A stretch of DNA of 64,000 nt, taken from NCBI GenBank assembly GCA_026391255.1, contig JAPLDU010000057.1:6973-70972 (forward strand). Reading direction: 5' to 3'. The notes beneath the pieces were generated by a model that was not told where the DNA came from, made no database searches, and saw nothing but the letters and a program-made list of their open reading frames with translations. Source of the DNA: Bacteroidia bacterium. GTDB lineage: Bacteria > Bacteroidota > Bacteroidia > Bacteroidales > JAPLDU01. Below, in pieces: positions 20,950 to 40,153 of this stretch. Each line of letters begins with the position of its first letter. Position 1 is the stretch's first letter. Both the position numbers and the translations under genes were made by a program.

Positions 20950-21040
20950 AGCAAACTTATCAACATGTTGTCGCTAAACATATTCCCGTGAAACGGATTT
21001 TATTTTCAAATTTTCAAATTTGCACATTTTCAAATTAATT
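20950..21040 (-). repeat. Dispersed repeat family 1, copy 2 (inverted), ending 25 nt upstream of the pepP start
   Basis: The reverse complement reads aatttgaaaatgtgcaaatttgaaaatttgaaaataaaatccgtttcacgggaatatgtttagcgacaacatgttgataagtttgct. Confidence 0.85.
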
Positions 21041-21065
21041 TAGTAACTAATTAAATAATTACGAT

Positions 21066-22460
21066 ATGTTTCCGAAAGAATTATACATCAACCGCCGCGA
21101 GCAATTGCGGAAAAAACTGCAGAGTGGAATAGTTTTATTACCGGGTAATCTTGAATCGCCCATGAATTATCCTTCCAATGGATATCACTTCAGACAGGAC
21201 AGTAATTTCCTGTATTTTTTTGGGGTTGATCTTCCCGGGATTGCCGGTATTCTTGATATTGACGAAGGTAAAGACATTCTTTTCGGAAATGATACTGATA
21301 TTGAGGATATTATCTGGATGGGTCCTCAGAAATCCATGAAAGAATTCGGGACCGACAGCGGAGCTTCCAGGGTGGAACCATATTCCGGATTGGCAACATA
21401 TATCGGATCAGCCATTGCCAAAGGAAGAACCATTCAGTATCTTCCTCCATACAGGCCGGAAAATAAAATGATCATGGGCAAATTGTTAGGTATATATCCT
21501 GACCGCATCAGGGATTATTCTTCAGTTCAGCTTATCAGGGCGATTATCAGCCTGAGAGAAATCAAAGACAGGTATGAAATTGAAGATATTGAAAAGTGTG
21601 AGGATGTTGCTTATGAAATGCACACCACTGCCATGAAAATGGCAAGACCCGGCATCCTTGAAAGCGAGATTTCCGGAGTGATTGAGGGTATTGCCCTGAA
21701 ATATGGAGGTATGATTTCTTTCCCGGTGATCTGTTCCATTCGTGGAGAAATACTGCACAATCATAATCATGGCAATCTTCTGAAAGAGGGCGATTTATTA
21801 ATTACTGATGCTGGTGCTGAATCGTCCCTGCACTATGCTTCCGATATTACCCGTACTTTTCCGGTGACAGGTAAATTTACACAGAAACAAAAGGATATTT
21901 ACCAGATTGTGCTGGATGCCAATAATACGGTGACTGCATCTTCAAAGCCTGGCATGACTTACCAGAGCGTTCATTTGCAGGCTGCCAGAGTGATAGCAGG
22001 CGGATTAAAAGACCTTGGGCTGATGAAAGGGGATATTGATGAGGCTGTTGCAGCCGGGGCTCATGCTATGTTTTTCCCACATGGTCTTGGTCACATGATG
22101 GGCCTCGATGTACATGATATGGAAGATATGGGCGAAGATTATGTTGGTTATGATTCTGAAATAAGCCGTATAGACCAGTTTGGAACTGCATACCTGAGGC
22201 TTGGAAAACGATTGAAACCAGGTTTTGTTATTACAAATGAACCAGGTATTTATTTTATTCCCGAGTTAATCAGCCAGTGGAAAAATGATAATAAATTTAG
22301 TCAGTTTATTAATTACCCGGCCGTTGAGCAGTATCTCGGGTTCGGAGGTATCCGGCTTGAAGATGACATTCTGATCACTGAATCGGGCTGCAGGATCCTG
22401 GGCAAAAAGCGGGTGCCGGTTACAATAAATGAAATTGAAAATATAGTGGGCAATATCTGA
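21066..22460 (+). CDS. pepP: Xaa-Pro aminopeptidase (M24B, aminopeptidase P family)
   Basis: 464 aa with M24 metal-ligand motifs (DAGAE...YASDITRT, HGLGHMMGLDVHD, NEPGIY, IRLEDD). Confidence 0.85.
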   Translation: MFPKELYINRREQLRKKLQSGIVLLPGNLESPMNYPSNGYHFRQDSNFLYFFGVDLPGIAGILDIDEGKDILFGNDTDIEDIIWMGPQKSMKEFGTDSGASRVEPYSGLATYIGSAIAKGRTIQYLPPYRPENKMIMGKLLGIYPDRIRDYSSVQLIRAIISLREIKDRYEIEDIEKCEDVAYEMHTTAMKMARPGILESEISGVIEGIALKYGGMISFPVICSIRGEILHNHNHGNLLKEGDLLITDAGAESSLHYASDITRTFPVTGKFTQKQKDIYQIVLDANNTVTASSKPGMTYQSVHLQAARVIAGGLKDLGLMKGDIDEAVAAGAHAMFFPHGLGHMMGLDVHDMEDMGEDYVGYDSEISRIDQFGTAYLRLGKRLKPGFVITNEPGIYFIPELISQWKNDNKFSQFINYPAVEQYLGFGGIRLEDDILITESGCRILGKKRVPVTINEIENIVGNI

Positions 22461-22550
22461 ATTAATTTGAAAATTTGAAAATGTGCAGATTTGAAAATTA
22501 AATCCGTTTTACGGGAATTAGATTAGCGACAACATTTTGGTAAGTTTGCT
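22461..22550 (+). repeat. Dispersed repeat family 1, copy 3, starting 1 nt after the pepP stop
   Basis: attaatttgaaaatttgaaaatgtgcagatttgaaaattaaatccgttttacgggaattagattagcgacaacattttggtaagtttgct. Confidence 0.85.
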
Positions 22551-22568: not shown

Positions 22569-23310
22569 ATGATAATTATTCCCGACAATTAAAGTACAAA
22601 AATTTGGAAGGCTATACCAGTTTCGGAAAGGTACCGATAAGGTATCGATCATTGGGCGAGGGAAATACGATTGTTCTTCTGCATGGTTATCTTGAATCCC
22701 TCGAAGTTTGGGGGAAATTCGAATATTTACTGGCAAATCATTTCAGGGTTGTAAGCATTGATTTACCCGGGCATTAACTGGATATTCCCTGGGAGGATAT
22801 GTCAGCCTTGCCTTCCTTGAAAAGTATCCTTCAAGATTATCCGGAATTTGTCTGATGCATTCAAATCCCTGGAGCGACCAACCAGAAAAAAAAGCCAATC
22901 GCGACAGGGAAATCGAACTGGTGAGATCTGGTAAAAAGAATATAATAGCTTCTAATAACATGATCCAGTCTTTCTCCGATACGAATACACAATTGATGAA
23001 AACAGAAGTTGACAGGTGCATTCAGATGGCCGTCTCCACTCCTGATGACGGTATCATTGCTATGCTGGAAGGGATGAAAGTCAGGCCGGATCGAAGTGAA
23101 ACGCTGAAAAAATCAATTTTACCTGTTTTATTGATCTTTGGTAAGTACGATCATTATCTGCCTCTCGATAAAGCTTTGACCATGACTCAATTATTGGGAA
23201 TACCCACTTTTCTTGTCCTTGAAAATTCAGGCCATATGGGGTTTCTTGAAGAATCTGAAATAGCTTCTGACTTTATTATCAAAAATATTCAATCAGTTAC
23301 TTCCTGGTAA
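22569..23310 (+). pseudogene. Alpha/beta-hydrolase pseudogene with an internal deletion, a frameshift and an unclear start
   Basis: The frame with pos mod 3 = 2 reads ...[45 protein letters not shown], then TAA at 22775-77. The frame with pos mod 3 = 1 opens at 22762 and reads ..GYSLGGYVSLAFLEKYPSRLSGICLMHSNPW... through to SGHMGFLEE and the stop at 23310. About 30-40 aa normally separate DLPGHG from the GxSxG elbow, and they are missing here. No clean ATG exists in the N-terminal frame; ATG 22569 is in a third frame. Confidence 0.75.
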
Positions 23311-24042: not shown

Positions 24043-27000
24043 ATGAGAATGTTTACTAATTTTTTACGGAGTAGTAAAATTTCTGTATCAGATGTAAGAT
24101 TGCTGGGTTTCATTGTACCGGTATTTTTACTGTTGGTAAGTTTTCAGGTTAGCAATGCACAGTTATCGGTTAGTGTGACTGTTCAAACTGCCCTTATGTG
24201 CAATGGTGATACCAATGGTGCCTTACAGGCTAATCCTGATGGAGGCACTGCACCATATAGCTATCATTGGAGTAATGGGGTATCTACCCAGATAGCCAGT
24301 AATCTGGTTGCAGAAACTTACAATGTTACGGTTACAGATCATAACAGTAACACGGCTTCAACATCATATACGCTTACACAACCAACCGAGTTGGCAATTT
24401 CTTTTACTTCCCATCCTGTTACATGTTATGGAGGAAGCGACGGTGAAATTACTGCTTCTGTTTCCGGTGGTATTTCTCCGTATTTTTATCTATGGGGAAA
24501 TGGCAATACTACTGACAGTTTATCAGGTTTGCCTTATGGTGAATATGGTATTACCGTATTTGATGCCAACAGTTGTGTTGTACAGTCTTCTTTCCTGTTA
24601 ACACAATCACTCCAGATCAAAATATTCCAGAGCGGAATTCTAAATATCTTATGTAATGGAGCCAGCACGGGCTACATACACATTACCTATACAGGTGGTG
24701 TTTCTCCTTATCAGTTTCTGTGGACAGGGGGTTATACTACTCAGAATATTGACAATGTTCCGGCCGGAAACTATACTGTTACTCTGACGGATTCAAACGG
24801 ATGTAAGGCGACTAAAGCTTTTACCCTTACACAGACAGCTGTGATAAATCCGGTGATTACTCCCGTGAATGTTGTCTGTAGCGCTGACCTGACAGGCTCT
24901 TTATCTGATTCAATCACCGGAGGTACAAGCCCGTATTCATACACTTGGTCCACCGGCGCAACAACTAAGAATATTTCCGGACTGGGCACTGGTACATACA
25001 GGGTGACGGTAACGGACAGCAATAACTGTAAAAATACTGCATCTGCAAGCATTATTGCTACTTCTTTAATGACATTCTCATTACAAAAAACAGATGAAAC
25101 ATGTTACGGTCTTAATGATGGTTCCGCAACTGTTAATATTTCCAGCGGTAATCCTGTTTATAGTTATCATTGGTCGAACAGCGGAAGCACTGCCACAATC
25201 AGTGGACTCCCCATAGGTAGTTACAATGTTACCGTTACTGATGGAAATGGATGCCCGTTTGTATCTTCGAGTGTTCAGATTGTCGGACCTACACAGATTC
25301 AATATTCTACAACCGTTACTGATGTAACCTGTAATAGTGGATCAGATGGCGCTGTGCAGCTTAGTGTTTCAGGTGGAACAAGTCCTTATACTTTTGCCTG
25401 GGGTAATAATGCAACAACTCAGAATATTTCAGGACTTCATGCCGGAGATTACCAGGTGACAATTTATGACAACAATAATTGTAATACTACTACAAGTGTA
25501 ACTGTTAATCAACCTCCAGCATTGATGGCTTCATTATCAGCAAGCAATGCCTCATGTTATCTTTATAATGTTGCTCTATCCGTTTCAGGAGGAAGCACAG
25601 GTTATTCTTACTACTGGTCTGATTTTTCCAGTAGTACTGGTTTAAGCGGTGTTCTTGCAGGGCATTATTCAGTTACGGTGACAGATAGTCATCAGTGTAC
25701 TGTGACTGCCGGCATATCAATTACACAACCTGATACACTTAAGGTTACCGTTTCCGGTTATCAGAATGTGGATTGTCGTGGAAATTCAAACGGATATGTT
25801 CATATCACAGTGACAGGAGGAACAACTGGATATCAGTACTCTTGGAGCAATTTTGCGACCACCCAGAATATTGATGGTATTTCAGGCGGTACTTACTCAG
25901 TTACCGTTACTGATGCAAAAGGATGCGTGGCTACTGCTCAGCAGATTATCAATGAACCTGCTTCAGGAATTACTGCCATACTGAATGTTACCAATGTGAA
26001 TTGCCATGGTAATTCTACAGGGGCAATCGACCTTATACCCTCAGGTGGAACTTCTCCTTATTCATTCCTGTGGAATAACGGTTCTACTGATGAAGATCTG
26101 TCAGGTATTCCTGCGGGTCCTTATTCTGTAGCTGTTAAAGATACTGATAATTGTATTTACTATTTTTCAACTGAGGTTGAACAACCAGAAGCTGATCTGG
26201 TGATCAGCAATTTCAATGTGACTAATATTAATTGTCATGGTAACCACAACGGAATAGTTACTATCAATGTCACAGGTGGTACTATACCATATTATTATAG
26301 TTGGTCGAATGGTGCTACCAGTCAAAACCTTCTTGGACTTGGACCAGATACTTATAGCGTTGTAGTTACCGACAACCTTGGTTGCACTACTTCGGGCTCG
26401 TACCAGGTTTCTCAGCCGGATACATTGGTTGCAGGTTCTACATATGGTAATATTCTTTGCCATGGAGGTACAACTAATATTTCTGTTTCAGCAACGGGTG
26501 GTGTTGCTCCTTACTCCGGAACCGGAACTTTTACTGTAAACGCAGGACCATATTCATATACTGTAACAGATGCTAACTTATGTACTTCAATTACTTCCGG
26601 TTCAATAAATGAACCTGGCCAACTGTATATTGACCTCAGCGCTTCTCCTTCTTCAATATTATGTAATGGAGGCACATCAACTATTACTATTGGCGCCCAT
26701 GGTGGTGTACCACCTTATCAGGGAACAGGCGATAGTACTGTTACTGCAGGAGGTTATTTATATACAGTTTATGATTCAAACGGTTGTCCTGCTTCCGGAA
26801 CCATTCAGGTGACCGAACCGGGTGTTCTGAATATAAGTGTATCTGCAAATCCAAACCCATTACTTTGTCACGGAGATTCAGCCACAGTCACTGTAACAGC
26901 AAGCTATGGTACTCCACCTTATACTGGTACCGGGATATTTAAAGAAATTGCAGGGACATATTCTTATACTGTTACTGATAATAATGGCTGTTCTGCTTCT

Positions 27001-27070
27001 CAGAATCTGACAATTACTCAACCTGATGCATTGGTTGCAGGTTCTACATATGGTAATATTCTTTGCAATG
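24043..27070 (+). CDS. Giant SprB-repeat cell-surface protein 'gene A', 5' segment (signal peptide plus repeat modules) up to the frameshift
   Basis: ORF-track entry 24043..27414. The N-terminus (..LLGFIVPVFLLLVSFQVSNAQ) is signal-peptide-like. It is followed by repeating C.G..DG.I...V.GG..PY.Y.W....T..I.GL..G.Y.VTVTD.NGC modules. Meaningful repeat translation stops at about 27070, and the 27071-27414 tail is out-of-frame junk. Confidence 0.85.
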
Positions 27071-27630
27071 TACGACTAATATTTCTGTTACTGCAACCGG
27101 TGGTATTTCTCCTTATAGTGGAACTGGTACTTTTAGCGTACATGCAGGACCATATTCATATAGTGTGTCGGATGCTAACGGATGTTCTTCAACTACTTCC
27201 GGTTTTATTTATGAACCTGACCAACTGTATATCGATCTCAGCGCTAATCCTTCTTCAATATTATGTAATGGCGGCACCTCAACTATTACTGTTGGCGCCC
27301 ATGGCGGTGTATCACCATATCAGGGAACAGGCAATTTTATCGTTACCGCAGGGGGACATTTATATACAGTTTATGATTCAAACGGTTGTCCTGCTTCCGG
27401 AACCATTCAGGTAACCGAACCAACTGTTCTGAACATCAGTGTATCTGCAAATCCAAATCCATTACTTTGTCACGGCGATTCAGCCACTGTCACTGTAACA
27501 GCAAGCTTTGGTACTCCACCTTATACCGGTACAGGAACATTCAAAAAAATTGCAGGAACATATACATACACAGTTACTGATCATAATGGTTGTAATGCAT
27601 CACAGGAGATTACAATTACGCAGCCTTCTG
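26423..27630 (+). repeat. Tandem duplication of a 606-bp unit (three ~67-aa modules) inside gene A
   Basis: Copy 1 (26423-27028) and copy 2 (27029-27630) align collinearly at roughly 90% identity by eye. Their first 38 nt (26423-26460 and 27029-27066) are identical. Copy 2 lacks 4 nt directly after that identical run. Confidence 0.85.
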
Positions 27631-30600
27631 CCCTTGTAGCTTCTTCGTCTGCTACTCCGATTTTGTGCAACGGCGGAACTTCTACTGTATCAGTTTCAGC
27701 TTCGGGTGGTACCACTCCATATTCCGGAGTCACTGATTATACTGTAATTGCAGGTTCATATACTTATTCAGTAACCGATGCTAACGGATGTACAGCTATA
27801 ACTAGTATTACCATCACTCAACCTGGCGCTCTTGCATTAGCCCCAACCATTCATAACGGACATTGCTTTAACGCAAATGACGGATATATTCACCTGCTTA
27901 TTTCCGGTGGAGTAACTCCTTATGCAATTCTCTGGTCAACTTCGGAAACTACCGCCAATATTGATAACCTGGCAGCCGGTGGCTATCAGGTTAATGTTAC
28001 AGATGCCAATGGTTGTCAGATATCCGGTTCTTACGAGATATCTCAACCACCCGCATTAACTGTACAGGCACATGGCACTGACCTTACATGTTACCACAAT
28101 TACACAGGTGTGGTATGGGCGGTCGTCGGAGGAGGTACTACTCCATATTCATATCATTGGATAAATTCTGCCACTACCGATACTGTTAATGGCTTAACCA
28201 TCGGATACTATTCGGTGGTCGTAACAGATGCCAATAACTGTATTGCTTCATCTGATATTATTATTAATGAACCTGATTTACTCATAATTTCCCTGAGTAC
28301 CACTAACGTACCCTGCAATGGAGGAACAGGTACCATTACCAGTTTTGTCCAGGGTGGTTCGGGACAATATGCATATAACTGGTCAAACGGAGCTACCACT
28401 GCAAATCTGACTGTTGTTGCCGGTACCTATATAGTAACGGTGACCAGCGGTGTTTGTATTGTTAAAGATTCGGCGACTATTGTCCAACCACCGGTGTTGC
28501 GCGCTCAGATTGATTCAATTCATAATGTGATGTGCTATGGTGATCATAATGGATACATTTATGTTACAGTTTCCGGTGGTGTTACTCCATATGCTTATAT
28601 TTGGACCAACGGAGCCACAATTGAAGATCTTACCGGGCTCAACGGAGGAAGCTATCAATTAACGGTTACGGATATGAATAACTGTCATGTGACTCTCAGC
28701 CAGACAATCAGTGAACCTTTAGCTCCCTTAACGACAGCAATTTTCGGTACAAACCTGCTCTGTTATAATGATTTTACCGGCACTGACAGTTTAGCCATCA
28801 GTGGCGGAACTACACCATATTATATATATTGGAATAACGGAGCAACAATTCAGAAACTGAATCATGTGGCTTCAGGAAATTATTCAGTGACTGTGACTGA
28901 TGCTCATGGTTGCACTTCTATCCAGAGTAATACTCTTACCCAACCATCTGAGATCATTGTCCAGACTGCTGTATTAAGTAATGTTTCCTGTTATGGCCTG
29001 CACGATGGTGCAGCATATCTTTCATCAATTACCGGAGGCGTTACTCCTTTTACAATCCAATGGACAGGTCCGAATAATTTTACATCTTCCGATCAGACTA
29101 TTAACAATCTGTACGCAGGAACTTATTATGTTAATGTGTTTGATGGAAACAATTGTCCTGCTACCATACACCCATCTGTAACTGTTACACAACCAGATCC
29201 ATTAGTAGTGACATATTATAAGCAGAATGTCGATTGTTATGGAAACAGCACCGGCGGAATTGATATTACCGTGACGGGAGGAACAACTCCTTATATTTAT
29301 GCCTGGAGTAATTCTGCCACAACCCAGGATATTACAGACCTGAGCGCAGGTAGTTACACCTTAACCCTTACTGATTATCACGGTTGTATTGTTGATACAA
29401 CAATTACCATATATCAGCCTGATGCACCATTAATGATTAGTACTTATTCAGTCCACAATGTAAATTGCTTTGGAGGAAACGACGGTTATATTAATATTAC
29501 AGTAACAGGTGGTACCACTCTTTATAGCTACCAATGGTCAAACGGTGAATCTACACAGACTACCACAAATCTGGCTGCCGGAGTGTATAGTGTGACTGTT
29601 ACTGATGCCCATGGATGCAAGGTTTATATGACGTTTGATGGATTCGATGAAGTCACTCAGCCGGATGCTCCACTAGCTCTGGATTATGAGGTTACCGATG
29701 TCAGTTGCAACGGTTTTAGTGACGGTAATGTTTCCCTTACTATTACAGGTGGTACACCTCCATATATAAAAGACTGGTATGATCACCTTCATAATGTTAT
29801 AGGTCATAATGCTTATATCGATGGAATTCCTGCGGGTAATTACAGTGTGGTAGTGACGGATGCAAATAATTGCGTTATCAGCGCTCAAATGACTGTTAAT
29901 CAACCAGTACTTCTGACTTTATCAGATTCTACATCTCATTATCACCAGTTCCAGGTCAGTTGTTACGGATCAAGTGATGGTTGGATTACAGTAATTCCTG
30001 CCGGTGGTACTTCTCCATATACTTATCTTTGGGACATTGGTTCTACAGTTGCTCATATCACTGGCCTTGCTGCCGGTTCATATCATGTTACTGTAACTGA
30101 TGCACACGGTTGTATTTCAAATATCACCGTTGTCCTTAACGGGCCAACTCCTGTTCAAATCCCCGAGCCTGTTCTTGTGAACATTTCATGTCATGGCGGA
30201 AACAACGGATCAATAAATATTTCACCGCTGGGCGGAACAGGTGTGTTTACTTACTACTGGACAGGTCCGAATAATTTTACAGCGTATTCCCAAAATATTA
30301 ATAACCTGTATGTTGGGACCTATTATATTACCGTTACTGACCAGAATGGTTGCAATGCTGATGCTAATTATTCACTTTCAGAACCGGAAGCATTACAATT
30401 AAGTTCAGTGTTATCTAATTACAATGGATTTAATGTTAACTGCTATGCCAATAACGACGGTTACATCAATACCACCATCAGCGGTGGAACATCTGGATAT
30501 ACATATCATTGGAGCAACGGAGCAACCACAGGTAATATTATGAACCTGTATGCCGGTAATTATTCTCTTACGGTGACTGATGCTCATGGTTGTATTATTA

Positions 30601-33600
30601 CCGGAGCCTGGACACTTACAAAGCCTGATCTATTGATTGCACAGGCCAATATTACATCAAATTATCACGATCAAAATATCAGTTGTAACGGTGCCAATGA
30701 TGGTGCTGCCTGTGTAGTTGGCCAGGGAGGCCTGACTCCTTACACTTATTTATGGTCAAATGGCGCTACTACATCATGTATTAGTGGTTTGCAGCCGATA
30801 AGCTACAATGTTACCATTACAGATTTCAATGGATGTGTAAGCAATAGCAATGTTGGCGGCAATTTACCGTGGACTTACAACGTAACTGAGAATTCTGCTG
30901 TTATTTTACTTCAGACCAATACGGTATTATTAATAGGCAGCCCTGCTCAGCCAATAGCCGTTGGCGATTACATCGGCGTATTCTATACCAATGGCGGTAA
31001 CCTCGTTTGTGGTGGTTACATGTTATGGAACGGATCGAATAACTCTATCACCGCCTGGGGAGATGATCCAATCACCGTTGGTGTGAAAGAAGGTTTTGCT
31101 CCCGGTGAAACATATACCTGGAAAATCTGGAGACCATATTTTGGTGAATTTAATGCTACTGCTGCTTATATTCCTATCATTCCTCCAAATCCACCTTTTT
31201 CAGCTACTTCTCATTATTCAAACGATGGAATATCCGGCCTTTTAAGCTTAATTTCGACTGAAACACTGAATATCACTCATACCGTGATCCAGCTACATCA
31301 GCCGGCTGCTCTGAGCTTATCGTTCAATACTACCAATGTTCTTTGTTCCGGCGGTTATTCCGGATCAATCAATCTTACTGTTACCGGCGGAACTATGCCT
31401 TATACATATTTATGGTCTCCCGGAGGCGCTACTACTCAAAATATAAATGCATTACAAGCTGGTATGTATTATGTAACCGTAATGGACGTCAATAATTGTT
31501 CTGTCACCGGATCGGTTCAAATAACCAGCCCGGAACCACTTTCATACGAGATAATTACTAATGATGTATCATGTTACGGTGGATCAGATGGAAGAGTACA
31601 AATAATTCCTTCCGGCGGTGTTTCTCCATATACATTTAACTGGGGAGGTTATAATCCTGTAGCATTGGCTGCCGGAACCTATAATGTAACAATTACTGAT
31701 CATAATAACTGCCAGCAGGTGGCAACGTTTGATATTTATCAGCCTTCAGTGCCTATGACTCTGCAGTATCAGGCAAACAATGTAACCTGCTACGGGTATT
31801 CCAATGGTTCAATATCACTCTCAGTTGAGGGAGGGACTATAACACCATGTGGTCATTATAGTTTTTCCTGGTCTGGCCCGAATTATTATTTTAATGAATC
31901 ACAAAATATAAATAATCTCATCGCTGGTATATATACTGTTACTGTTACCGATTGCAATGGTTGTATAAAAATTCAAAGTGTGACAGTCGGACAACCGGAT
32001 GCAATTACTATACCGGGTTTAATCTCTAATTATAGTGGTTATGGCGTTAGTTGCAACGGTTCAGCCGATGGATCAATAAATATAACTGTAATGGGTGGCA
32101 CTACACCATATATTTATATGTGGGATAATTTAGCAACAACAGAAGATATGTCAGGTTTGACTTCAGGTGTTTATAGTGTGATAGTTCATGATGTTAACAA
32201 CTGTATGGGAAGTGCCAGTTTCTCGTTAACTGAACCCGCTCATATCACATTGAGTGCTGTTGCTACATCATCATTTGTTGTTAATGGAAATACTTACAAT
32301 ACTACCTGTAATGGGAATAACGGTACTATTAGCTTGTCTGTCAGCGGTGGTTCTGGAATTTATTTCTACCATTGGTCATATGGACAGACCACTCAGAATC
32401 TGAATGGTGTTCCGGCGGGATATTATACTGTTACAGTTACTGACAGCAACGGATGCCAGGCTGTTTCAAATACTGTGAACCTCACAGCTCCCGGCCCGCT
32501 CGATGTTACCTTGAGTTCAGATAATTTCAATGGTTATCAGATACAATGTAATGGTATGACTGCCAATTTGTACCTGAACTGGTCAGGTGGTGCATCACCT
32601 TATAATATATACTTTAATAACGGAGTATTTGCCATGAATGTAACCGGTAACACCTATTCACATTCCGGCTTTGCACCTGGTACTTACTGGGCTGCAATTT
32701 ATGATCATAATGGATGCGGAAGGTTATCAAATCAGTTTACTGTAACTCAGCCAGCTCCAATTCAGTTCCCTCCAAATGCTGTTACAAGTGTTAGTTGTCA
32801 TGGCGACGGTGATGGTTCCATTAATCTTACAAATATGTTGGGTGGCGTTCCTCCTTTCACTTATCAATGGGATTATAATGCTAACTGGTCAACTGCTGCA
32901 CAGATTACAGGATTACCTGGTGGATCATCATACTATGTTGTTGTATGGGATGCTAACGGTTGTTCGGAAGGAACCACATTTACCATACCTGAACCTGCTC
33001 CTTTGGTGTATCTCAGTAATACAACAGGAAATGTTTCCTGTTACGAAGGATCAAACGGACATATTACACCATCTGTATCCGGTGGTACATTACCATATTC
33101 CTACACTGCCATGAATCAGAGCAATGTCTTGTTTAACCAGATAATTGCACTACCAGCCGGGACATATTCCGTTACTGTTACAGATGCACATGGTTGTACT
33201 GCTGTAATGAATGGTATTGTAATAACCCAGCCGGTTATGTTAATGGCTTCTTCTTCTTCTACAAGTATTTTATGCCACGGAGGTAATTCAACAGTCACTG
33301 TTTCTGCTACCGGAGGCACATTGCCCTATACCGGAACAGGAACATATACAGTTGTTGCAGGTACTTATTCCTACACGGTTAGTGATGCTCTTGGATGTAA
33401 TTCAGTTACAACAATCACGGTTACAGAACCAACTGTTCTTACTGCTTCTTCCGTAGCTACTCCGATTTTATGTAATGGTGGAAATGCCACTGTAACTGTT
33501 ACTGCTTCGGGAGGTACTGGTTTAATTAGCGGAACAGGTACATTTAACAGAACTGCAGGTACATGGTCATTTACAGTTACAGATGCCAATGGTTGTACAG

Positions 33601-36600
33601 CAACTACATCAGTAACTATTGCACAACCAACACCTGTTGTTGTTGAATTATCAGCTACTCAAATTGCCTGTTATGGTGGCAACTCAACAGTTACCGTCAG
33701 TGCAACCGGAGGAACAGGTACATATACCGGAACAGGTACATTTACCAGAACATTTGGAACCTGGTCGTTTACAGTGACAGATGCCAATGGTTGTTCAGGA
33801 TCATCAAGTATTACCATATCACAGCCCACTCAACTGACTGCTTCTGCTTCAACAACCATTGTTTCGTGCAATGGCGGAAGTGACGGAACCATCACATTAT
33901 CAGTTTCCGGTGGTATTACTCCTTATTCGTTTAACTGGGCTGATGGACCTACCACACAAAATCGCAGTGACCTTACTGCCGGAACCTACTATGTAGTGGT
34001 TTATGATGGAAACGGTTGTTTTGTTGATGTAAATGCAACTATAACAGAAAATACATTATTGCATGCTATTGCAAATCCGGGTGTTATCTTATGTCAAGGT
34101 GGCAGTACAAATGTTGTTATCACGGCTACAGGAGGAACAGTACCATATTCAGGAACCGGTACTTTTACCCAGTCAGTTGGAAGTCACACATATACAGTAA
34201 CTGATATTAATCAATGCACAGCCAATATCTTGGTTACTTTAACGGAACCTGCTTTATTGCAAGCTATAGCAACTCCTGGTTTTATTCCATGTCATGGAGG
34301 CAGTACCAGTGTTGTTATCACCTCAACAGGTGGAATCGGAATAGTTACAGGAACCGGTACATTTACTCAGTCTGTGGGTAGCCACACATACACTGTGACG
34401 GATGCTAACGGATGTACTGCTTCTACTATCGTTACATTAACTGAACCTGCTACCCTTGCTTATACATTAACCATTAACTCTCCATTATGCCATGGAAGCA
34501 GTGATGGTTCAATTGACCTGAATGTTACCGGAGGAACAACTCCTTATACCTTTATTTGGAATACAGGTGCAACCGATCAGAATCTGACAAATATCGGCGT
34601 TGGCAGTTATTCAGTTACCATATATGATATGCATTCATGCTCTGTCAGCGGATCATTTGTTGTAACGCAGCCTAATGCATTAGGAATACAATACAGTATA
34701 ACAAGTTCGACCTGCGGGTTATCTGATGGTGAGATATTAATTACCGGTTATTCCGGTGGTACTGCACCATATTTGGTAACCTGGGCTCATACTGTTTCAC
34801 ATAACCCGATACAACTCTATCTTGCTCCCGGAAATTATTATGCAACCATTACAGATGCTAATAATTGTGAACTGACTCAAGTATTTACAGTTGTTAACTT
34901 TAATCATTTGTCCTTTGTAACTGCTCCAATTCATAATGTCAGTTGTTTTGAAGGAAATGACGGATCAATTACCCTTTCTGTTTCGGGTGGCTTCCTTCCT
35001 TTGACCTATTTATGGTCCAATGGTGAAACCACACAGAATGCTGTTAATCTGACGGCAGGTTTTTACACAGTTACGGTTATTGATGCAAACGGATGTACAG
35101 GAACTACCAGTGCCACTGTGATACAGGCACCCAGCCTTCTGCACTCCAGTATTTCTTCATCAGCAGTTTCTTGTCCCGGAGGTAGTAATGGTGCTTTGGA
35201 TCTAACAGTACTTGGTGGCTTAACGCCATATACATATCATTGGAATACAGGAGCTACAACCGAAGATCTCAGCAATCTGCCGGCAGGTAATTATTCTGTA
35301 ACTGTGACTGATTACTATGGTTGTCAAAACATTCCGACAGCTACTGTTGAGCAGCCTCCTGTTATTCAGGCAACATTCGTAAAATCTAATTACAACGGTT
35401 ATAATATAAGTTGTTTTGGTTCTGCTACAGGGAGTATCGATATGACAGTTATCGGTGGTACAACTCCTTATACTTATCTCTGGTCAACAGGTGCTACCAC
35501 ACAAAACCTTGCCAATACGTCAAACGGCAATGCTTCAAATGTGACTTACACCGTTACCATTACCGATCATCATGGTTGCACCCAAACAGCCTCTACCATA
35601 ATGACTCAGCCTGGTACTCCGAACCTGCAGTTTACTCATCCACCTATCACAACTTGCTATGGTGATCCGATAGGACATATTACGCTGACGGTGACATTTA
35701 CTGGATTAACTCCTCCTCCTCCATACACATATCTCTGGTCAAACGGTGCTACAACACAAAGTTTAACGAATATACCAGGAGGAATATATTTTGTAACATT
35801 CACCGATGCTAACGGATGCCAGACAATGACCCAGACAACTCTTATACAACCTACTCAGGTAATTGCTACTGCAACTACGACTACCAACTTTAACGGTTAT
35901 AATGTTAGTTGTTTCGGTTCATCTAATGGCGCTGCCATTGTTAATGCAACTGGTGGTAATGGTCCATATACATTTAAGTGGAGTGATCCATCCGGTACTA
36001 CAAATCAGACAATTTCAGGAATTACTGCAGGTACATTTAACGTTACCGTTACCGACTCTCATACTTGTACAGCAACCTCTTCAGTGATACTTACCCAGCC
36101 TCCGGCTATCACATTATCGTCGCAAATTACAATCGTGAATTGCAATGGTAACAATACGGGCGCTATTGACGTTACTCCCGGCGGAGGTGTTTTACCTTAC
36201 TTATTTCAGTGGTCTAACAGTTCGACAACACAGGATATTTCAAACCTGGTTGCCGGATTTTATTCTATCACACTTACTGATGCAAATACGTGTACTGCTT
36301 CTGCAAGTTACCTTGTTACTCAGAGTTCAGCTATCAATATCACTAATCCGGTGATTACTAAAGTCAATTGTTACGGTAGTGCGACCGGAATGATCAGTAT
36401 TACAGTATTTGGAGGAAGTTCGCCTTACGACTTTAACTGGTCAAATGGTAGCACTGTTCAAAATCCTTCGGGACTGTTAGCCGGGCCTTATAATCTTACG
36501 ATAACAGATGCACATGGATGTACTAAAACAGCTTCTTATACAGTTACCACGAATCCTCAGTTAACATTATCAGGGCCGATTAACAATGTTTCCTGTTTTG

Positions 36601-39600
36601 GAGGTAATAATGGAGCTATTAATATTATAGCTGGAGGTGGTGTAACACCATATTTATATATTTGGAGTGACGGACCTACTTCTCAAAACAGATCAGTCCT
36701 TGTTGCAGGTACGTATAATATCACTGTTATTGATGCCGCATTATGTAGTATTACCGGTTCCTTTATCGTTACTCAGCCAGACCAGTTAATTGCCGATGAT
36801 GTCATTACAGACGTAAGTTGTTACGAGGGTACGAATGGCGCAATTAATCTGACTGTTACCGGTGGTACGACTCCATATTCATACGTTTGGAGCAATGGAG
36901 CACATACTAAAGATATCAGTAACCTGGTTGCAGGTAATTACTCTGTGGTAATCACAGATACTCATTCATGTACAATCAGTGGAGCTTATGTTGTGAATCA
37001 ACCTCCAATTTTCCTGGCAAATACTCAATTAGTATCAGGAATCAGTTGTTTCGGCTCCAGTGACGGAGTAGTAACTGTGGTTGAGACCAATGGTGTTGCT
37101 CCATTTACCTATCTTTGGAGTAATGGCGGTTCTACAGCCACAATTTCAGGACTTGCTACCGGAACTTATTCTGTTACGGTAACCGATGCCCATGGTTGTG
37201 TAGCTAATAGTGTTCTTCCTCCATTCCCATGGAATTTTACGGTTACCAGTACAAATCATACAATAGCAATTCAACCTTCAACAGTATTTGATATTGGCGG
37301 AAGTAATATCCAGATAGGTGACTATATCGGAGTTTTCTACAACTATGGCGGTACTTTACATTGTGGTGGTTATGTACAGTGGACAGCTGCCAGTGCTTCC
37401 TTTGGTACTTCCCTGGCTGCCTGGGGAGTTGACGTAAGTGGTGATGGATTCGTATCTGGTGAACCATTTAACTGGAAAATATGGCGTTCAAGCTTTGGAT
37501 ATGATGTGAATGCTACTGCTGTAGCCAATCCGTTATTTGACCCGTTCAATTTTAATAACGGCTCACTAAGTGCTCTTCAATCACTCACTGTCAGCCCGTC
37601 GGATATTCCGACTGATCCTAATCAGATTACATTAACACAACCTACACCTGTAACAGCAGCCATATATATGATATCCTCTCCGATAACATGTGCCGGTGGT
37701 GTTACTTCACTTATTGCTGCTCCTGCCGGTGGTACAGCTCCTTATTCATTCCTCTGGAGTAATAATGTCACTACCCAGACTTTGAATAATATACCTGTTG
37801 GTACATATTACCTTACGGTTACTGATGCTCATGGATGTACCGGAACAGCTCAGTATATTGTTACCGGACCTGATCCGTTTGCATTTAGTTACTCAGTTAA
37901 TGAACCTTCCTGCTATGGATATTCCAATGGTTCTGCAGATGTGACGGTTACTGGTGGTGCTTCACCTTATACGATTATCTGGACTACCATAGGCCAGTTC
38001 GGAACCCATGCTTCCAACCTTTCTGCAATAACATATCCGTTATTTATCATTGATAGTCATAACTGTACCGGATACTCATCAGTATCTGTTGCTCAACCTG
38101 ATGCAATCAGCCTGTTTACAACTGTAACCAATATTAATTGTAATGGATCTGCAACCGGAGCTATTACCCTGGCTGTTACAGGAGGAACATCGCCTTATAC
38201 TTACAACTGGTCTAACGGAGCTACAACTAAAGATATCAGCGGACTCGTTGCTGGCACATACACAGTAATAGTCACTGATTTAAACGGTTGTACATCATCA
38301 ACTAGTGCAACTGTCACTCAATCTGCTGCAATAGGAATAACATATGTGGTTACTGACAATAACTGCAATTATAACCAGATTGGTGCTATTAATATCACAG
38401 TTACGGGAGGTACTTCACCTTATACTTATTCCTGGTCAAACGGAGCGACAACTGAAGATATCAGTGGTCTTACTTCAGGAACTTATCATGTGGTTGTAAC
38501 AGATGTTAATGGTTGTACCGGAAGTACAAGTGCCACGGTTTCTATTATTAATCCTCTGTTTGAGACTTTAAAGATTATAACCCCGGTGAGTTGTGCTGAA
38601 GGGAATAATGGTTCTGTTCATATTGTAATCAATTTTGGTCATAATAATATTACCTGGAAAGATTTCAACAATGTTACCCTTACTACTTCATATGATGCTG
38701 CTTCATCAACCTTAAGTAATGTCATTTCCGGTATTTATTATGTAAATGTATACAACCTGATAACCGGCTGTACATTGCTTGATACTGTTGAAGTTACCGA
38801 ACCGGATCCTCTCACATATGATGCAGTTGTCACCAATGTAAGTTGTTACAAGGGTTCAAATGGCGGAGTTGACCTGACTGTTTACGGAGGAACTACCCCG
38901 TATACCTACCAGTGGTCAACCGGAGCTGTAAATCTTGGAACTACACAGGATCTGACTAATAAAAAGGCAGGTACTTACAAAGTTATTGTGACTGATGCAC
39001 ATGGTTGTACATTTGATGCAATATTTACTCTTACCCAGCCTACTAAGATTACCCCAAGCGTATTGATTTCCAACCTGAATTGCAACGGCGATCAGTCTGG
39101 CAGTATTGATCTGAGCGTCAGCGGTGGTATTACTCCTTATTTATACAACTGGAGTACCGGAGCTCATACACAGGATATTTCAGGATTATCCGGAGGAACA
39201 TATGTTGTGTCAGTAACTGATGAAAATGGTTGTGTTGTTGTAAATACATCCGTAGTGACTGAACCTGCTGTTCTTGCTGTTACAATGTCAGGAGTGAATG
39301 TCAACTGTTATGGTGGTAATGACGGCCATGCAACAGCATTAGTATCAGGCGGAACAACTCCACCTATTAATTTTGTCTGGAGCAACGGAGGAAGCAATGA
39401 TAATATTTCAGGGATATATGCAGGTACTTATTATGTAAGTGTTTATGATGCTAACGGTTGTAATGCTTTGAATTCAATTGTAATTACAGAACCTCCACAA
39501 TTGACTCTTAGTGTAATTCAGGATGTATTCAACAGCGGCTCATTCTGTGAAGCACTTGCAACTGCCGGTGGTGGTTCACCCTCTTATACTTATCAATGGT

Positions 39601-40067
39601 CGAATGCTCCATATTTTTCTACTACTCCAAGGGCTACACACTTGACTCCCGGTACGGTCTATACTGTTACAGTTACTGATACTCATGGTTGTTCCATTGT
39701 CGGAAGTGTTTTGATTCAGGCAAACCCATTGCAACCACAGATTGTTGATAATGAGTATAACCGTCAGGACAATCAGCAGCAAGTCAATCTGACACCTGTC
39801 ATCGATATTAGTAAAGAAATTACTGTGTATCCGAATCCAAACAAGGAAGGGCGCTTTACTGTTAATTTCGGTACCGTCAATGTGAATAATGCCCGGATTA
39901 AAGTATTTGACCAGTTCGGTAAGTTAATTTACACTGAGTTATTACTTAATAATGAAAACTCCCTGTTCATTCTGAACCTCAATAGTGTAGCTGCCGGAAC
40001 CTATTTCCTGCAGATTAATACTGATCATAACGGAATTCTTAACAAACAGCTCATAATCACCGAATAA
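27063..40067 (+). CDS. Giant SprB-repeat cell-surface protein 'gene A', 3' segment (4,334 codons) ending in a T9SS C-terminal sorting domain
   Basis: ORF-track entry. The same module family continues from codon 27072 (TTNISVTATGGISPYSGTG...). Restoring 4 nt gives 16,029 nt, or 5,343 codons, from 24043 to 40067. The C-terminus matches the Por_Secre_tail pattern. Confidence 0.9.
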   Translation: MQCTTNISVTATGGISPYSGTGTFSVHAGPYSYSVSDANGCSSTTSGFIYEPDQLYIDLSANPSSILCNGGTSTITVGAHGGVSPYQGTGNFIVTAGGHLYTVYDSNGCPASGTIQVTEPTVLNISVSANPNPLLCHGDSATVTVTASFGTPPYTGTGTFKKIAGTYTYTVTDHNGCNASQEITITQPSALVASSSATPILCNGGTSTVSVSASGGTTPYSGVTDYTVIAGSYTYSVTDANGCTAITSITITQPGALALAPTIHNGHCFNANDGYIHLLISGGVTPYAILWSTSETTANIDNLAAGGYQVNVTDANGCQISGSYEISQPPALTVQAHGTDLTCYHNYTGVVWAVVGGGTTPYSYHWINSATTDTVNGLTIGYYSVVVTDANNCIASSDIIINEPDLLIISLSTTNVPCNGGTGTITSFVQGGSGQYAYNWSNGATTANLTVVAGTYIVTVTSGVCIVKDSATIVQPPVLRAQIDSIHNVMCYGDHNGYIYVTVSGGVTPYAYIWTNGATIEDLTGLNGGSYQLTVTDMNNCHVTLSQTISEPLAPLTTAIFGTNLLCYNDFTGTDSLAISGGTTPYYIYWNNGATIQKLNHVASGNYSVTVTDAHGCTSIQSNTLTQPSEIIVQTAVLSNVSCYGLHDGAAYLSSITGGVTPFTIQWTGPNNFTSSDQTINNLYAGTYYVNVFDGNNCPATIHPSVTVTQPDPLVVTYYKQNVDCYGNSTGGIDITVTGGTTPYIYAWSNSATTQDITDLSAGSYTLTLTDYHGCIVDTTITIYQPDAPLMISTYSVHNVNCFGGNDGYINITVTGGTTLYSYQWSNGESTQTTTNLAAGVYSVTVTDAHGCKVYMTFDGFDEVTQPDAPLALDYEVTDVSCNGFSDGNVSLTITGGTPPYIKDWYDHLHNVIGHNAYIDGIPAGNYSVVVTDANNCVISAQMTVNQPVLLTLSDSTSHYHQFQVSCYGSSDGWITVIPAGGTSPYTYLWDIGSTVAHITGLAAGSYHVTVTDAHGCISNITVVLNGPTPVQIPEPVLVNISCHGGNNGSINISPLGGTGVFTYYWTGPNNFTAYSQNINNLYVGTYYITVTDQNGCNADANYSLSEPEALQLSSVLSNYNGFNVNCYANNDGYINTTISGGTSGYTYHWSNGATTGNIMNLYAGNYSLTVTDAHGCIITGAWTLTKPDLLIAQANITSNYHDQNISCNGANDGAACVVGQGGLTPYTYLWSNGATTSCISGLQPISYNVTITDFNGCVSNSNVGGNLPWTYNVTENSAVILLQTNTVLLIGSPAQPIAVGDYIGVFYTNGGNLVCGGYMLWNGSNNSITAWGDDPITVGVKEGFAPGETYTWKIWRPYFGEFNATAAYIPIIPPNPPFSATSHYSNDGISGLLSLISTETLNITHTVIQLHQPAALSLSFNTTNVLCSGGYSGSINLTVTGGTMPYTYLWSPGGATTQNINALQAGMYYVTVMDVNNCSVTGSVQITSPEPLSYEIITNDVSCYGGSDGRVQIIPSGGVSPYTFNWGGYNPVALAAGTYNVTITDHNNCQQVATFDIYQPSVPMTLQYQANNVTCYGYSNGSISLSVEGGTITPCGHYSFSWSGPNYYFNESQNINNLIAGIYTVTVTDCNGCIKIQSVTVGQPDAITIPGLISNYSGYGVSCNGSADGSINITVMGGTTPYIYMWDNLATTEDMSGLTSGVYSVIVHDVNNCMGSASFSLTEPAHITLSAVATSSFVVNGNTYNTTCNGNNGTISLSVSGGSGIYFYHWSYGQTTQNLNGVPAGYYTVTVTDSNGCQAVSNTVNLTAPGPLDVTLSSDNFNGYQIQCNGMTANLYLNWSGGASPYNIYFNNGVFAMNVTGNTYSHSGFAPGTYWAAIYDHNGCGRLSNQFTVTQPAPIQFPPNAVTSVSCHGDGDGSINLTNMLGGVPPFTYQWDYNANWSTAAQITGLPGGSSYYVVVWDANGCSEGTTFTIPEPAPLVYLSNTTGNVSCYEGSNGHITPSVSGGTLPYSYTAMNQSNVLFNQIIALPAGTYSVTVTDAHGCTAVMNGIVITQPVMLMASSSSTSILCHGGNSTVTVSATGGTLPYTGTGTYTVVAGTYSYTVSDALGCNSVTTITVTEPTVLTASSVATPILCNGGNATVTVTASGGTGLISGTGTFNRTAGTWSFTVTDANGCTATTSVTIAQPTPVVVELSATQIACYGGNSTVTVSATGGTGTYTGTGTFTRTFGTWSFTVTDANGCSGSSSITISQPTQLTASASTTIVSCNGGSDGTITLSVSGGITPYSFNWADGPTTQNRSDLTAGTYYVVVYDGNGCFVDVNATITENTLLHAIANPGVILCQGGSTNVVITATGGTVPYSGTGTFTQSVGSHTYTVTDINQCTANILVTLTEPALLQAIATPGFIPCHGGSTSVVITSTGGIGIVTGTGTFTQSVGSHTYTVTDANGCTASTIVTLTEPATLAYTLTINSPLCHGSSDGSIDLNVTGGTTPYTFIWNTGATDQNLTNIGVGSYSVTIYDMHSCSVSGSFVVTQPNALGIQYSITSSTCGLSDGEILITGYSGGTAPYLVTWAHTVSHNPIQLYLAPGNYYATITDANNCELTQVFTVVNFNHLSFVTAPIHNVSCFEGNDGSITLSVSGGFLPLTYLWSNGETTQNAVNLTAGFYTVTVIDANGCTGTTSATVIQAPSLLHSSISSSAVSCPGGSNGALDLTVLGGLTPYTYHWNTGATTEDLSNLPAGNYSVTVTDYYGCQNIPTATVEQPPVIQATFVKSNYNGYNISCFGSATGSIDMTVIGGTTPYTYLWSTGATTQNLANTSNGNASNVTYTVTITDHHGCTQTASTIMTQPGTPNLQFTHPPITTCYGDPIGHITLTVTFTGLTPPPPYTYLWSNGATTQSLTNIPGGIYFVTFTDANGCQTMTQTTLIQPTQVIATATTTTNFNGYNVSCFGSSNGAAIVNATGGNGPYTFKWSDPSGTTNQTISGITAGTFNVTVTDSHTCTATSSVILTQPPAITLSSQITIVNCNGNNTGAIDVTPGGGVLPYLFQWSNSSTTQDISNLVAGFYSITLTDANTCTASASYLVTQSSAINITNPVITKVNCYGSATGMISITVFGGSSPYDFNWSNGSTVQNPSGLLAGPYNLTITDAHGCTKTASYTVTTNPQLTLSGPINNVSCFGGNNGAINIIAGGGVTPYLYIWSDGPTSQNRSVLVAGTYNITVIDAALCSITGSFIVTQPDQLIADDVITDVSCYEGTNGAINLTVTGGTTPYSYVWSNGAHTKDISNLVAGNYSVVITDTHSCTISGAYVVNQPPIFLANTQLVSGISCFGSSDGVVTVVETNGVAPFTYLWSNGGSTATISGLATGTYSVTVTDAHGCVANSVLPPFPWNFTVTSTNHTIAIQPSTVFDIGGSNIQIGDYIGVFYNYGGTLHCGGYVQWTAASASFGTSLAAWGVDVSGDGFVSGEPFNWKIWRSSFGYDVNATAVANPLFDPFNFNNGSLSALQSLTVSPSDIPTDPNQITLTQPTPVTAAIYMISSPITCAGGVTSLIAAPAGGTAPYSFLWSNNVTTQTLNNIPVGTYYLTVTDAHGCTGTAQYIVTGPDPFAFSYSVNEPSCYGYSNGSADVTVTGGASPYTIIWTTIGQFGTHASNLSAITYPLFIIDSHNCTGYSSVSVAQPDAISLFTTVTNINCNGSATGAITLAVTGGTSPYTYNWSNGATTKDISGLVAGTYTVIVTDLNGCTSSTSATVTQSAAIGITYVVTDNNCNYNQIGAINITVTGGTSPYTYSWSNGATTEDISGLTSGTYHVVVTDVNGCTGSTSATVSIINPLFETLKIITPVSCAEGNNGSVHIVINFGHNNITWKDFNNVTLTTSYDAASSTLSNVISGIYYVNVYNLITGCTLLDTVEVTEPDPLTYDAVVTNVSCYKGSNGGVDLTVYGGTTPYTYQWSTGAVNLGTTQDLTNKKAGTYKVIVTDAHGCTFDAIFTLTQPTKITPSVLISNLNCNGDQSGSIDLSVSGGITPYLYNWSTGAHTQDISGLSGGTYVVSVTDENGCVVVNTSVVTEPAVLAVTMSGVNVNCYGGNDGHATALVSGGTTPPINFVWSNGGSNDNISGIYAGTYYVSVYDANGCNALNSIVITEPPQLTLSVIQDVFNSGSFCEALATAGGGSPSYTYQWSNAPYFSTTPRATHLTPGTVYTVTVTDTHGCSIVGSVLIQANPLQPQIVDNEYNRQDNQQQVNLTPVIDISKEITVYPNPNKEGRFTVNFGTVNVNNARIKVFDQFGKLIYTELLLNNENSLFILNLNSVAAGTYFLQINTDHNGILNKQLIITE
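30861..31260 (+). other. Recurrent ~125-aa non-SprB insert domain ('GDY-GVFY/CGG/AWG/WKIW' domain), copy 1 (gene A)
   Basis: LPWTYNVTENSAVILLQTNTVLLIGSPAQPIAVGDYIGVFYTNGGNLVCGGYMLWNGSNNSITAWGDDPITVGVKEGFAPGETYTWKIWRPYFGEFNATAAY...NDGISGLLSLIS. Confidence 0.8.
37215..37595 (+). other. Recurrent insert domain, copy 2 (gene A)
   Basis: FPWNFTVTSTNHTIAIQPSTVFDIGGSNIQIGDYIGVFYNYGGTLHCGGYVQWTAASASFGTSLAAWGVDVSGDGFVSGEPFNWKIWRSSFGYDVNATAV...NNGSLSALQSLTV. Confidence 0.8.
39819..40064 (+). other. T9SS C-terminal sorting domain (Por_Secre_tail / type A-like CTD) of gene A
   Basis: ITVYPNPNKEGRFTVNF....ARIKVFDQFGKLIYTE......FILNLNSVAAGTYFLQINTDHN..NKQLIITE shows the typical VYPNP start, the G.Y.. hydrophobic pattern and the terminal beta-strand. 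Confidence 0.8.
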
Positions 40068-40101: not shown

Positions 40102-40129
40102 GATCGGGTGGCCGAAAGGCCATCCGATC
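40102..40129 (+). terminator. Hairpin with a GAAA tetraloop between gene A and gene B (candidate terminator or attenuator)
   Basis: gatcgggtggcc-gaaa-ggccatccgatc forms a 12-bp stem with one mismatch. It lies 35 nt after the gene A stop, followed by AT-rich sequence but no clean T-run. Confidence 0.5.
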
Positions 40130-40153
40130 ATATAATTATAAAAATTCTTAATT

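Follow-up and report, generated by a model that had tools for sequence, protein, structure and literature searches.

A 4-nt gap splits a giant SprB-repeat gene in a Bacteroidia bacterium: recent deletion or local assembly error

The DNA analysed here, hereafter the window, is a stretch of 64,000 nucleotides from the assembly of an uncultured Bacteroidia bacterium (GCA_026391255.1, contig JAPLDU010000057.1). On its forward (+) strand, to which all coordinates given below refer, it carries what looks like one very large gene, gene A, lying in two different reading frames. This raises the question of whether gene A is one gene broken by the loss of 4 nt, and, if so, whether that loss took place in the organism or in the making of its consensus sequence. 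From its sequence, we take gene A to be one gene of 5,342 codons that encodes a giant cell-surface protein built of SprB repeats. With a probability of roughly one half, which makes it marginally likelier than a consensus error, the 4-nt loss is a genuine deletion in at least part of the sequenced population, that is, a recent or polymorphic knockout of a large and costly adhesin.

Gene A contains an internal tandem duplication, the first copy of which occupies 26408-27013 (606 nt, or 202 codons, corresponding to three SprB-like repeats of 66-68 aa) and the second 27014-27615 (602 nt). Within the duplicated unit the repeats take the form ...ILCxGG(T/S)TxxVxAxGGxxPYxGxG...DxNGC... Local alignment of 26408-27024 against 27014-27626 gave a single gap, of 4 nt, at 27070/27071, where copy 2 lacks GAGG, or GGAG, relative to copy 1; in a gap-free repeat finder, the spacing between repeat copies drops from 606 to 602 nt across the same position. 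The sequence of copy 1 at 26455-26484 is CTTTGCCATGGAGGTACAACTAATATTTCT, and that of copy 2 at 27061-27086 is CTTTGCAATG^TACGACTAATATTTCT, with the gap at the caret; both match what a first-pass annotation of this DNA had quoted. The junction as deposited (AATG/TACG) is TTTGCAATGTACGACT, and its 4-nt-longer counterpart is TTTGCAATGGAGGTACGACT, with AATGGAGGTACG as its core. The first-pass annotation had also placed the lesion exactly at the start of copy 2, which needs correction: the unit boundary is at 27013/27014 and the lesion lies 57 nt inside, in the first repeat of the second unit, where the missing nucleotides take out the G-G of the C-x-G-G repeat core.

The map of stop codons bears out the proposed change from frame 1 to frame 0, as well as the continuation of the 5' ORF as junk up to 27414. 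Frame 1 is open from 24013 onwards and meets its stop at 27412-27414, and frame 0 is open over 27057-40067, the 3' part of gene A, with homologous reading from 27072. Since the last stop in frame 0 is at 27054, a switch of frame that keeps homology is confined to 27057-27072. When GAGG is added after 27070, a single ORF of 16,029 nt is obtained, with 5,342 codons and a single terminal stop, whose translation across the junction reads ...GNILCNGGTTNISV... / ...STYGNILCNGGTTNISVTATGG... Adding GGAG after 27069 leads to the same product, which means that there is 1 nt of microhomology at the lesion. The earlier claim that a 4-nt loss splits a single gene is therefore upheld, both by the single gap and by the repaired ORF, and the alignment offers only this gap, and no other indel, to explain the frame change.

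What the two parts encode was established with profile searches and by inspection. The 5' fragment, ORF1 (24043-27414, frame 1; GenBank MCX6257828.1), encodes 1,123 aa with nine SprB repeats, and PF13573, the SprB-repeat family, matches it over 9 stretches (E = 1.5e-87). Two 800-aa samples of the 3' ORF, ORF2, match the same family over seven and eight stretches (1.1e-48 and 7.7e-67, respectively). SprB repeats are thus present on both sides of the lesion, and in the repaired protein C-x-G is found in 59 repeats. The N-terminus of ORF1 (24043-24162; MRMFTNFLRSSKISVSDVRLLGFIVPVFLLLVSFQVSNA/Q) resembles a signal peptide, as judged by eye from the translation, with a basic n-region, a hydrophobic core, LLGFIVPVFLLLVSF, and an SNA-Q site. 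A type A type IX secretion system (T9SS) sorting domain is found at the far 3' end only (39825-40058), in the last 78 residues, where PF18962 (E = 2e-14, 54.1 bits against a cut-off of 27) and TIGR04183 (E = 6e-14, 51.8 bits against a cut-off of 23) both match.

According to one account of the system (PMC12618676), the proteins that the T9SS secretes are equipped with a Sec signal peptide and with a C-terminal domain. An intact gene A product would therefore be expected to leave the cytoplasm by Sec export through its N-terminal signal peptide, and then to cross the outer membrane by the T9SS, which would recognise the type A C-terminal domain. As deposited, the predicted Sec signal and the sorting domain sit on separate ORFs, in different frames, and are joined only after the 4 nt are restored. 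Translation of the gene as written, from its true start, would give a product of 1,123 aa with the predicted signal peptide, some 1,009 genuine repeat residues, 114 junk residues and no sorting domain; the other 4,330 codons would include the sorting domain, with neither a start context nor a signal peptide. Because the export and the sorting signals are on different ORFs, neither product should be displayable; since T9SS cargo generally has to carry the two signals on the same polypeptide, we infer that the deposited allele is null for surface display. No T9SS-machinery family was recognised among those window ORFs that were scanned.

A search of protein representatives returned thousands of homologues of 2,000-7,400 aa. 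In the giant homologues P0151, P0196 and P0241 the motif ILCxGG(T/S)T is contiguous in every repeat, without any frame break. Gene A is akin to the giant SprB-repeat T9SS cargo of Bacteroidota in its SprB repeats, its type A C-terminal domain and its signal-peptide-like N-terminus. It differs in that, as deposited, signal peptide and sorting domain are in different frames, and its nearest relatives are at most 55-60% identical to it, over individual repeats only; among 80 related Bacteroidales loci that were compared, none has the gene in synteny. With SprB, the gliding adhesin of Flavobacterium johnsoniae, gene A has in common the repeat family, the giant size and secretion by the T9SS. In the F. 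johnsoniae operon sprF accompanies sprB, whereas downstream of gene A there is a second, putative giant cargo gene, gene B, which has a choice-of-anchor J domain and MAM/CARDB-like matches. Furthermore, SprB relies on SprF, a PorP-like protein, and its sorting domain is of type B (PMC9143113), in contrast with the type A domain of gene A. PF13585 (CHU_C) remains under its cut-off of 27 on gene A (E = 0.0031, 18 bits), only the type A model passing, and we thus rejected the idea that gene A is a SprB orthologue.

Divergence between the two copies provides a relative age for the lesion. Codon-aligned in the repaired frame, the copies show a dS of 0.35, a dN of 0.10 and a dN/dS of 0.28, and their differences fall 25/14/45 on the first, second and third codon positions. 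Within the part that ORF1 reads off-frame (27071-27411) the counts are 15/10/23, so that the third positions of frame 0 are favoured there too. It follows that copy 2 has been evolving as frame-0 coding sequence for almost its whole existence as a duplicate. No stop occurs in the 13,008 nt that follow the lesion. Taking about 4.5% of random substitutions to create stops, we estimate that neutral divergence since the lesion amounts to roughly 0.5% at most, and that the lesion is at least 70-fold younger than the duplication. The open 13 kb downstream, together with the divergence of the copies, indicates that the lesion is far younger than the duplication event and unrelated to it.

The two copies are identical at 518 of 602 aligned bases, that is, 86%, or 85% when the gap is counted, and not at about 90% as had been given for most of the unit. 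The first-pass annotation had drawn attention to 38 nt of complete identity just upstream of the lesion. This tract does exist (27029-27066, equal to 26423-26460) and ends 4 nt before the lesion, but it is neither the sole nor the longest one: some 290 nt downstream there is an exact tract of 55 nt (27358-27412, equal to 26756-26810), and further identical runs measure 24 and 20 nt. Random redistribution of the 84 mismatches over the 602 nt produced an identical run of 38 nt or more in 21% of shuffles (P = 0.21), one of 55 nt or more in 1.2-1.5%, and the two together in about 0.2%. The identity of the two copies is thus patchy, and either uneven constraint or old patches of gene conversion could account for this. 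However, the argument that the 38-nt tract by itself marks a breakpoint of recombination, gene conversion or misassembly is weak as it was put, given P = 0.21 and the longer run elsewhere. Another consideration is where the lesion falls within the two giant genes. The lesion has the end of an exact repeat, 38 nt or longer, no more than 5 nt away, which is true of only 1.2% of positions in genes A and B; if repeats from 20 nt upwards are counted, the share rises to 5.3%. The placement of the lesion beside the boundary of the 38-nt repeat favours a repeat-related cause, as moderate evidence that was noticed after the fact.

Could the frame change be read through by the cell? A programmed -1 (or +2) ribosomal shift, or slippage of RNA polymerase, near 27057-27072 would give a full-length protein, and the change needed, from frame 1 to frame 0, does equal a -1 shift. 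Moreover, the two ORFs overlap by 352 nt (27063-27414), 358 nt being open in both frames (27057-27414), and the off-frame tail of ORF1 (27071-27414; 114 codons, non-homologous and hydrophobic, then a TAA stop) is unusually long, its 113 stop-free codons making it the second longest of 687 such runs. Yet 67 of these 113 stop-free codons are common to the equivalent frame of copy 1, and the excess is modest. The residual surprise is only about P = 0.08, by estimate, and we set the long tail aside as a sign of selection. As to the signals that recoding calls for, the annotated absence of a homopolymer or slippery heptamer was confirmed over 27040-27412, a region in which every phase is free of X XXY YYZ heptamers and no homopolymer exceeds 5; the longest in 27000-27420 is GGGGG at 27351. 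Tandem Repeats Finder (TRF) detected no tandem micro-repeat at the lesion. The 100 nt downstream fold no better than their shuffles (minimum free energy of -17.7 kcal/mol against a shuffle mean of -18.9, z = +0.37), so no stimulatory structure is apparent there, and an Rfam scan of the whole window returned no family at gathering score. In addition, the product of a shift would be without the conserved G-G of the repeat core, and the frameshift is not conserved in the giant homologues, which read straight through ILCxGG(T/S)T, the best available identity being at most 60%. With neither heptamer, homopolymer nor RNA structure, programmed frameshifting or slippage was rejected as a candidate, and we regard a full-length protein made in this way as extremely improbable.

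A functional split, in which both ORFs are expressed as separate proteins, is how the public record could be read. GenBank lists two CDSs and no pseudogene, namely, MCX6257828.1 and a CDS of 3,845 aa that starts from an ATG at 28530. ORF1 is 100% identical to the former (P0001, 'MAG: SprB repeat-containing protein [Bacteroidia bacterium]', 1,123 aa), and the latter (P0133) is 100% identical to window 28530-40067. The contig on which MCX6257828.1 lies measures 74,523 bp. These matches mean that the GenBank deposit itself carries the lesion. Nonetheless, the second CDS as annotated begins in the middle of a repeat, and the uncalled stretch that precedes it (27415-28529) consists of perfect SprB repeats in frame 0; at the other side, the last 114 residues of ORF1 are off-frame. 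Before 27400 the only candidate starts in frame 0 are a TTG at 27063 and a GTG at 27165, and neither is followed by a hydrophobic leader, in keeping with the annotated want of a credible start or signal peptide in the 3' ORF; indeed, no signal peptide follows any candidate start. An internal promoter for ORF2 was considered and dropped, promoter-like sites being no commoner than expected by chance. Finally, a sorting domain is useless without Sec export, at least as the T9SS is presented in that same account (PMC12618676). Two working proteins from this locus thus seem every bit as improbable as recoding.

A second gene of the window shows a defect of a similar kind. The alpha/beta hydrolase gene that lies just upstream of gene A is also broken, at around 22,774, where its N-terminal part (22604-22777, frame 2) gives way to a C-terminal part that resumes in frame 1 at 22774. 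In syntenic orthologues, which lie downstream of an aminopeptidase gene, 32 residues separate the two segments, pointing to an out-of-frame deletion of about 97 nt in the gene of the window; GenBank lists only the C-terminal fragment of 173 aa (P0297). The other genes scanned in the first 24 kb (1-24 kb) look complete by profile coverage, and the first gene is cut by the start of the window.

This leaves the two explanations that the first-pass annotation had named, real inactivation by mutation and an error of assembly or consensus. That was the right choice to pose, and the site gives no sign of slippage or recoding. Under the second explanation the gene is intact in the organism, and the 4 nt were lost while a short-read assembler or scaffolder was resolving two tandem units of 86% identity, at the place where the assembly path leaves the 38-nt tract. 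Several points speak for it. The source is a metagenome-assembled genome (MAG), and in short-read MAG scaffolds there are local errors backed by no read, of which one genome of 1.13 Mb had 13, one of them in a repeat-containing gene (PMC7111523). The lesion, 4 nt past an exact inter-copy repeat, is where a repeat-induced error is expected, and few positions of the two giant genes are so close to such a boundary. The 13 kb downstream are perfectly open, and a second clean frame-breaking lesion, that of the hydrolase gene, is found 4.3 kb upstream; two lesions that leave otherwise perfect ORFs have the look of an artefact, and two in 64 kb fits the published order of magnitude (PMC7111523).

Several observations nonetheless count against an assembly error. 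First, assemblers based on De Bruijn graphs output only k-mers seen in reads. Second, a mis-join at the repeat would add or remove a whole unit of 602 or 606 nt, or would swap copy-specific SNPs, and would not remove 4 nt. Here, every k-mer of 12 nt or more across the gap occurs only once in the window, with bases specific to copy 2 on either side, A at 27067 and G at 27074, from which we rejected a chimeric join of two paralogous copies present in the window. Third, exact repeats of 38 nt or longer have about 50 further boundaries in genes A and B, and none of these shows a frame break. More broadly, the 13 kb of gene A that lie 3' of the lesion and the 23.9 kb of gene B, some 37 kb altogether, are open across 174 exact repeat pairs of at least 20 nt, and there are no Ns in the window. 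Fourth, the loss of about 97 nt in the hydrolase gene is in unique sequence and is hard to blame on repeats; this second clean lesion, in a non-repetitive gene with no repeat to mislead an assembler, is counted in favour of a real deletion. Against a genuine deletion, on the other hand, it counts that losses of 4 nt seldom arise spontaneously outside a repeat or homopolymer. Taking all of this into account, we consider a local assembly or consensus error to be a serious contender, with chances that fall somewhat short of even.

Gene A may also be set beside known cases. With recent frameshift pseudogenes and polymorphic nulls of large surface-protein genes it shares a single frame-breaking indel, an otherwise intact ORF and a large mutational target. 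From typical contingency-locus frameshifts it differs in that its 4-nt loss involves no repeat tract or homopolymer. With the local assembly errors of short-read MAGs (Chen et al. 2020, PMC7111523) it shares the MAG source, the richness in repeats, the adjoining exact inter-copy repeat and the otherwise perfect frame. The defining feature of those errors is a consensus without perfect support from any read (PMC7111523). Gene A differs in that the k-mers across its gap are unique and are flanked by copy-specific bases.

Searches for relatives returned no second copy of the junction. Scanned as an exact pattern, the junction had 0 matches among genome contigs and among metagenome contigs, whichever gap length was used, and exact-protein look-ups gave no match for ORF1, for the 3,845-aa CDS or for either hydrolase fragment. 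MCX6257828.1 forms a singleton cluster among 15 billion proteins. For the aminopeptidase, an exact match was found in a Logan contig of 1,472 nt from run ERR15302191, 100% identical to window 21015-22486; judging from this identity, ERR15302191 is an independent run that holds the same strain, although its contig reaches neither lesion. Elsewhere, identity was at most 62% for the aminopeptidase among the matches listed for GTDB species representatives, at most 33% for the junction in JGI metagenomes, and at most 55-60% in protein searches, such that no close relative was found in any collection searched.

If the deletion is real, one may further ask whether it could be reversed. The tandem duplicate would then serve as a spare, or repair template, and a crossover or gene conversion downstream of the lesion would restore the gene, taking it from OFF to ON at recombination frequency. 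A crossover within the 55-nt tract, between 26756-26810 and 27358-27412, would delete 602 nt including the lesion and yield an intact, uninterrupted ORF of 15,423 nt and 5,140 codons; one within the 38-nt tract would not restore the ORF. The patchy identity of the copies, with both long runs so rarely reproduced in shuffles, is compatible with past gene conversion. Still, 55 nt of identity inside DNA that is 86% identical make a poor RecA substrate, no site-specific recombinase or invertible element lies nearby, and the step from ON to OFF is without a mechanism, so that restoration is an arithmetical possibility and not an observation. We consider such a switch highly unlikely, albeit a little less so than recoding or a functional split. 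Were it true, the population would keep a giant surface protein in a recombination-reversible OFF state.

Based on these results, the feature is an ordinary one: a very recent gene-killing lesion or a local assembly error, and not a new mechanism. Its significance is mainly for data quality and annotation. In GenBank, a T9SS cargo gene of 5,342 codons is divided between two proteins that look unrelated, the first of which gains 114 junk residues, and 27415-28529, which is 1.1 kb of coding sequence, is left uncalled. Protein databases then take in artefactual sequences of this sort as singleton clusters. The alpha/beta hydrolase gene next to gene A has the same kind of problem. For the organism, if the deletion is real, as we marginally favour, gene A would add another to the recent knockouts that are commonly met in large surface-protein genes, in this case of a costly giant adhesin.

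In the public annotation, the 3' part of gene A, the giant SprB-repeat gene whose frame is split by the loss of 4 nt at 27070/27071, is represented by a CDS of 3,845 amino acids (28530-40067; database protein P0133, 100% identical). The start assigned to this CDS, the ATG at 28530, falls in the middle of a repeat, and the 1.1 kb of in-frame SprB repeats from 27415 to 28529 are left without any CDS call. On the 5' side, the off-frame tail of ORF1, the upstream fragment of gene A, runs for 113 codons without a stop (27073-27412, frame 1), the second longest among the 687 +1-offset runs of genes A and B (mean of about 18). The equivalent stretch in copy 1, the first of the two internal tandem units, contains three stops. 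Since the stop-free run common to copy 1 and copy 2 makes up 67 of the 113 tail codons, the length of this tail is probably due to chance.

Gene A is adjoined by a second broken gene, which encodes an alpha/beta hydrolase (22604-23310, + strand). When compared with its syntenic orthologues, this gene lacks about 97 nt of its interior at approximately 22774-22777, a loss that breaks the frame. The deletion removes the 32 residues that lie between DLPGH and the GxSxG nucleophile elbow in all syntenic orthologues, and the GenBank entry covers only a C-terminal fragment of 173 amino acids (P0297).

Repeated sequences were also found elsewhere. First, gene A contains a further internal tandem duplication at 34056-34451 (period of 198 nt, two copies, 76% matches). 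Second, an element about 88 nt long, intergenic and rich in TTTGAAAAT motifs, occurs twice on the + strand, at 2074-2161 and 22460-22547, with around 93% identity (five mismatches), a repeat match for which the chance expectation is 0. The copies lie directly 3' of the stop codons of unrelated genes, for a cation-efflux protein and an aminopeptidase P, and neither has a match in Rfam. Third, the 86-nt spacer between the stop codon of gene A and the ATG of gene B (40154) holds a GC-rich inverted repeat, GATCGGGTGGCC GAAA GGCCATCCGATC (40104-40131), that looks like a terminator stem, and genes A and B may thus be separate transcription units.

Gene B, the second giant ORF (+ strand), extends from 40154 past the end of the window at 64000, with more than 7,900 codons. 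Its start resembles a signal peptide, and it includes a choice-of-anchor J domain, together with weak MAM/CARDB-like matches and, at 54.7-63.9 kb, densely packed internal repeats that are exact over as many as 71 nt. Genes A (35213-38134) and B (50257-53181) have in common a block of about 2.9 kb with 80% identity, in which the longest exact run is 59 nt. Along this block the offset shifts from 15,044 to 15,047 nt, an indel that keeps the frame. The shared block suggests that the two giant genes are linked by duplication or gene conversion. In the protein homologue search, no match was longer than about 1.7 times its query (at most 1,398 amino acids for an 800-residue query and 246 for a 143-residue query), and therefore giant or much longer homologues, the window's own ORFs included, can escape it.

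A contig from Logan (ERR15302191_4980298), assembled from ENA run ERR15302191 and independent of the window's assembly, corresponds to 21015-22486 with 100% identity over 1,472 nt, which indicates that this strain is also sampled elsewhere. The reads of ERR15302191 could decide both lesions, in gene A and in the hydrolase gene.
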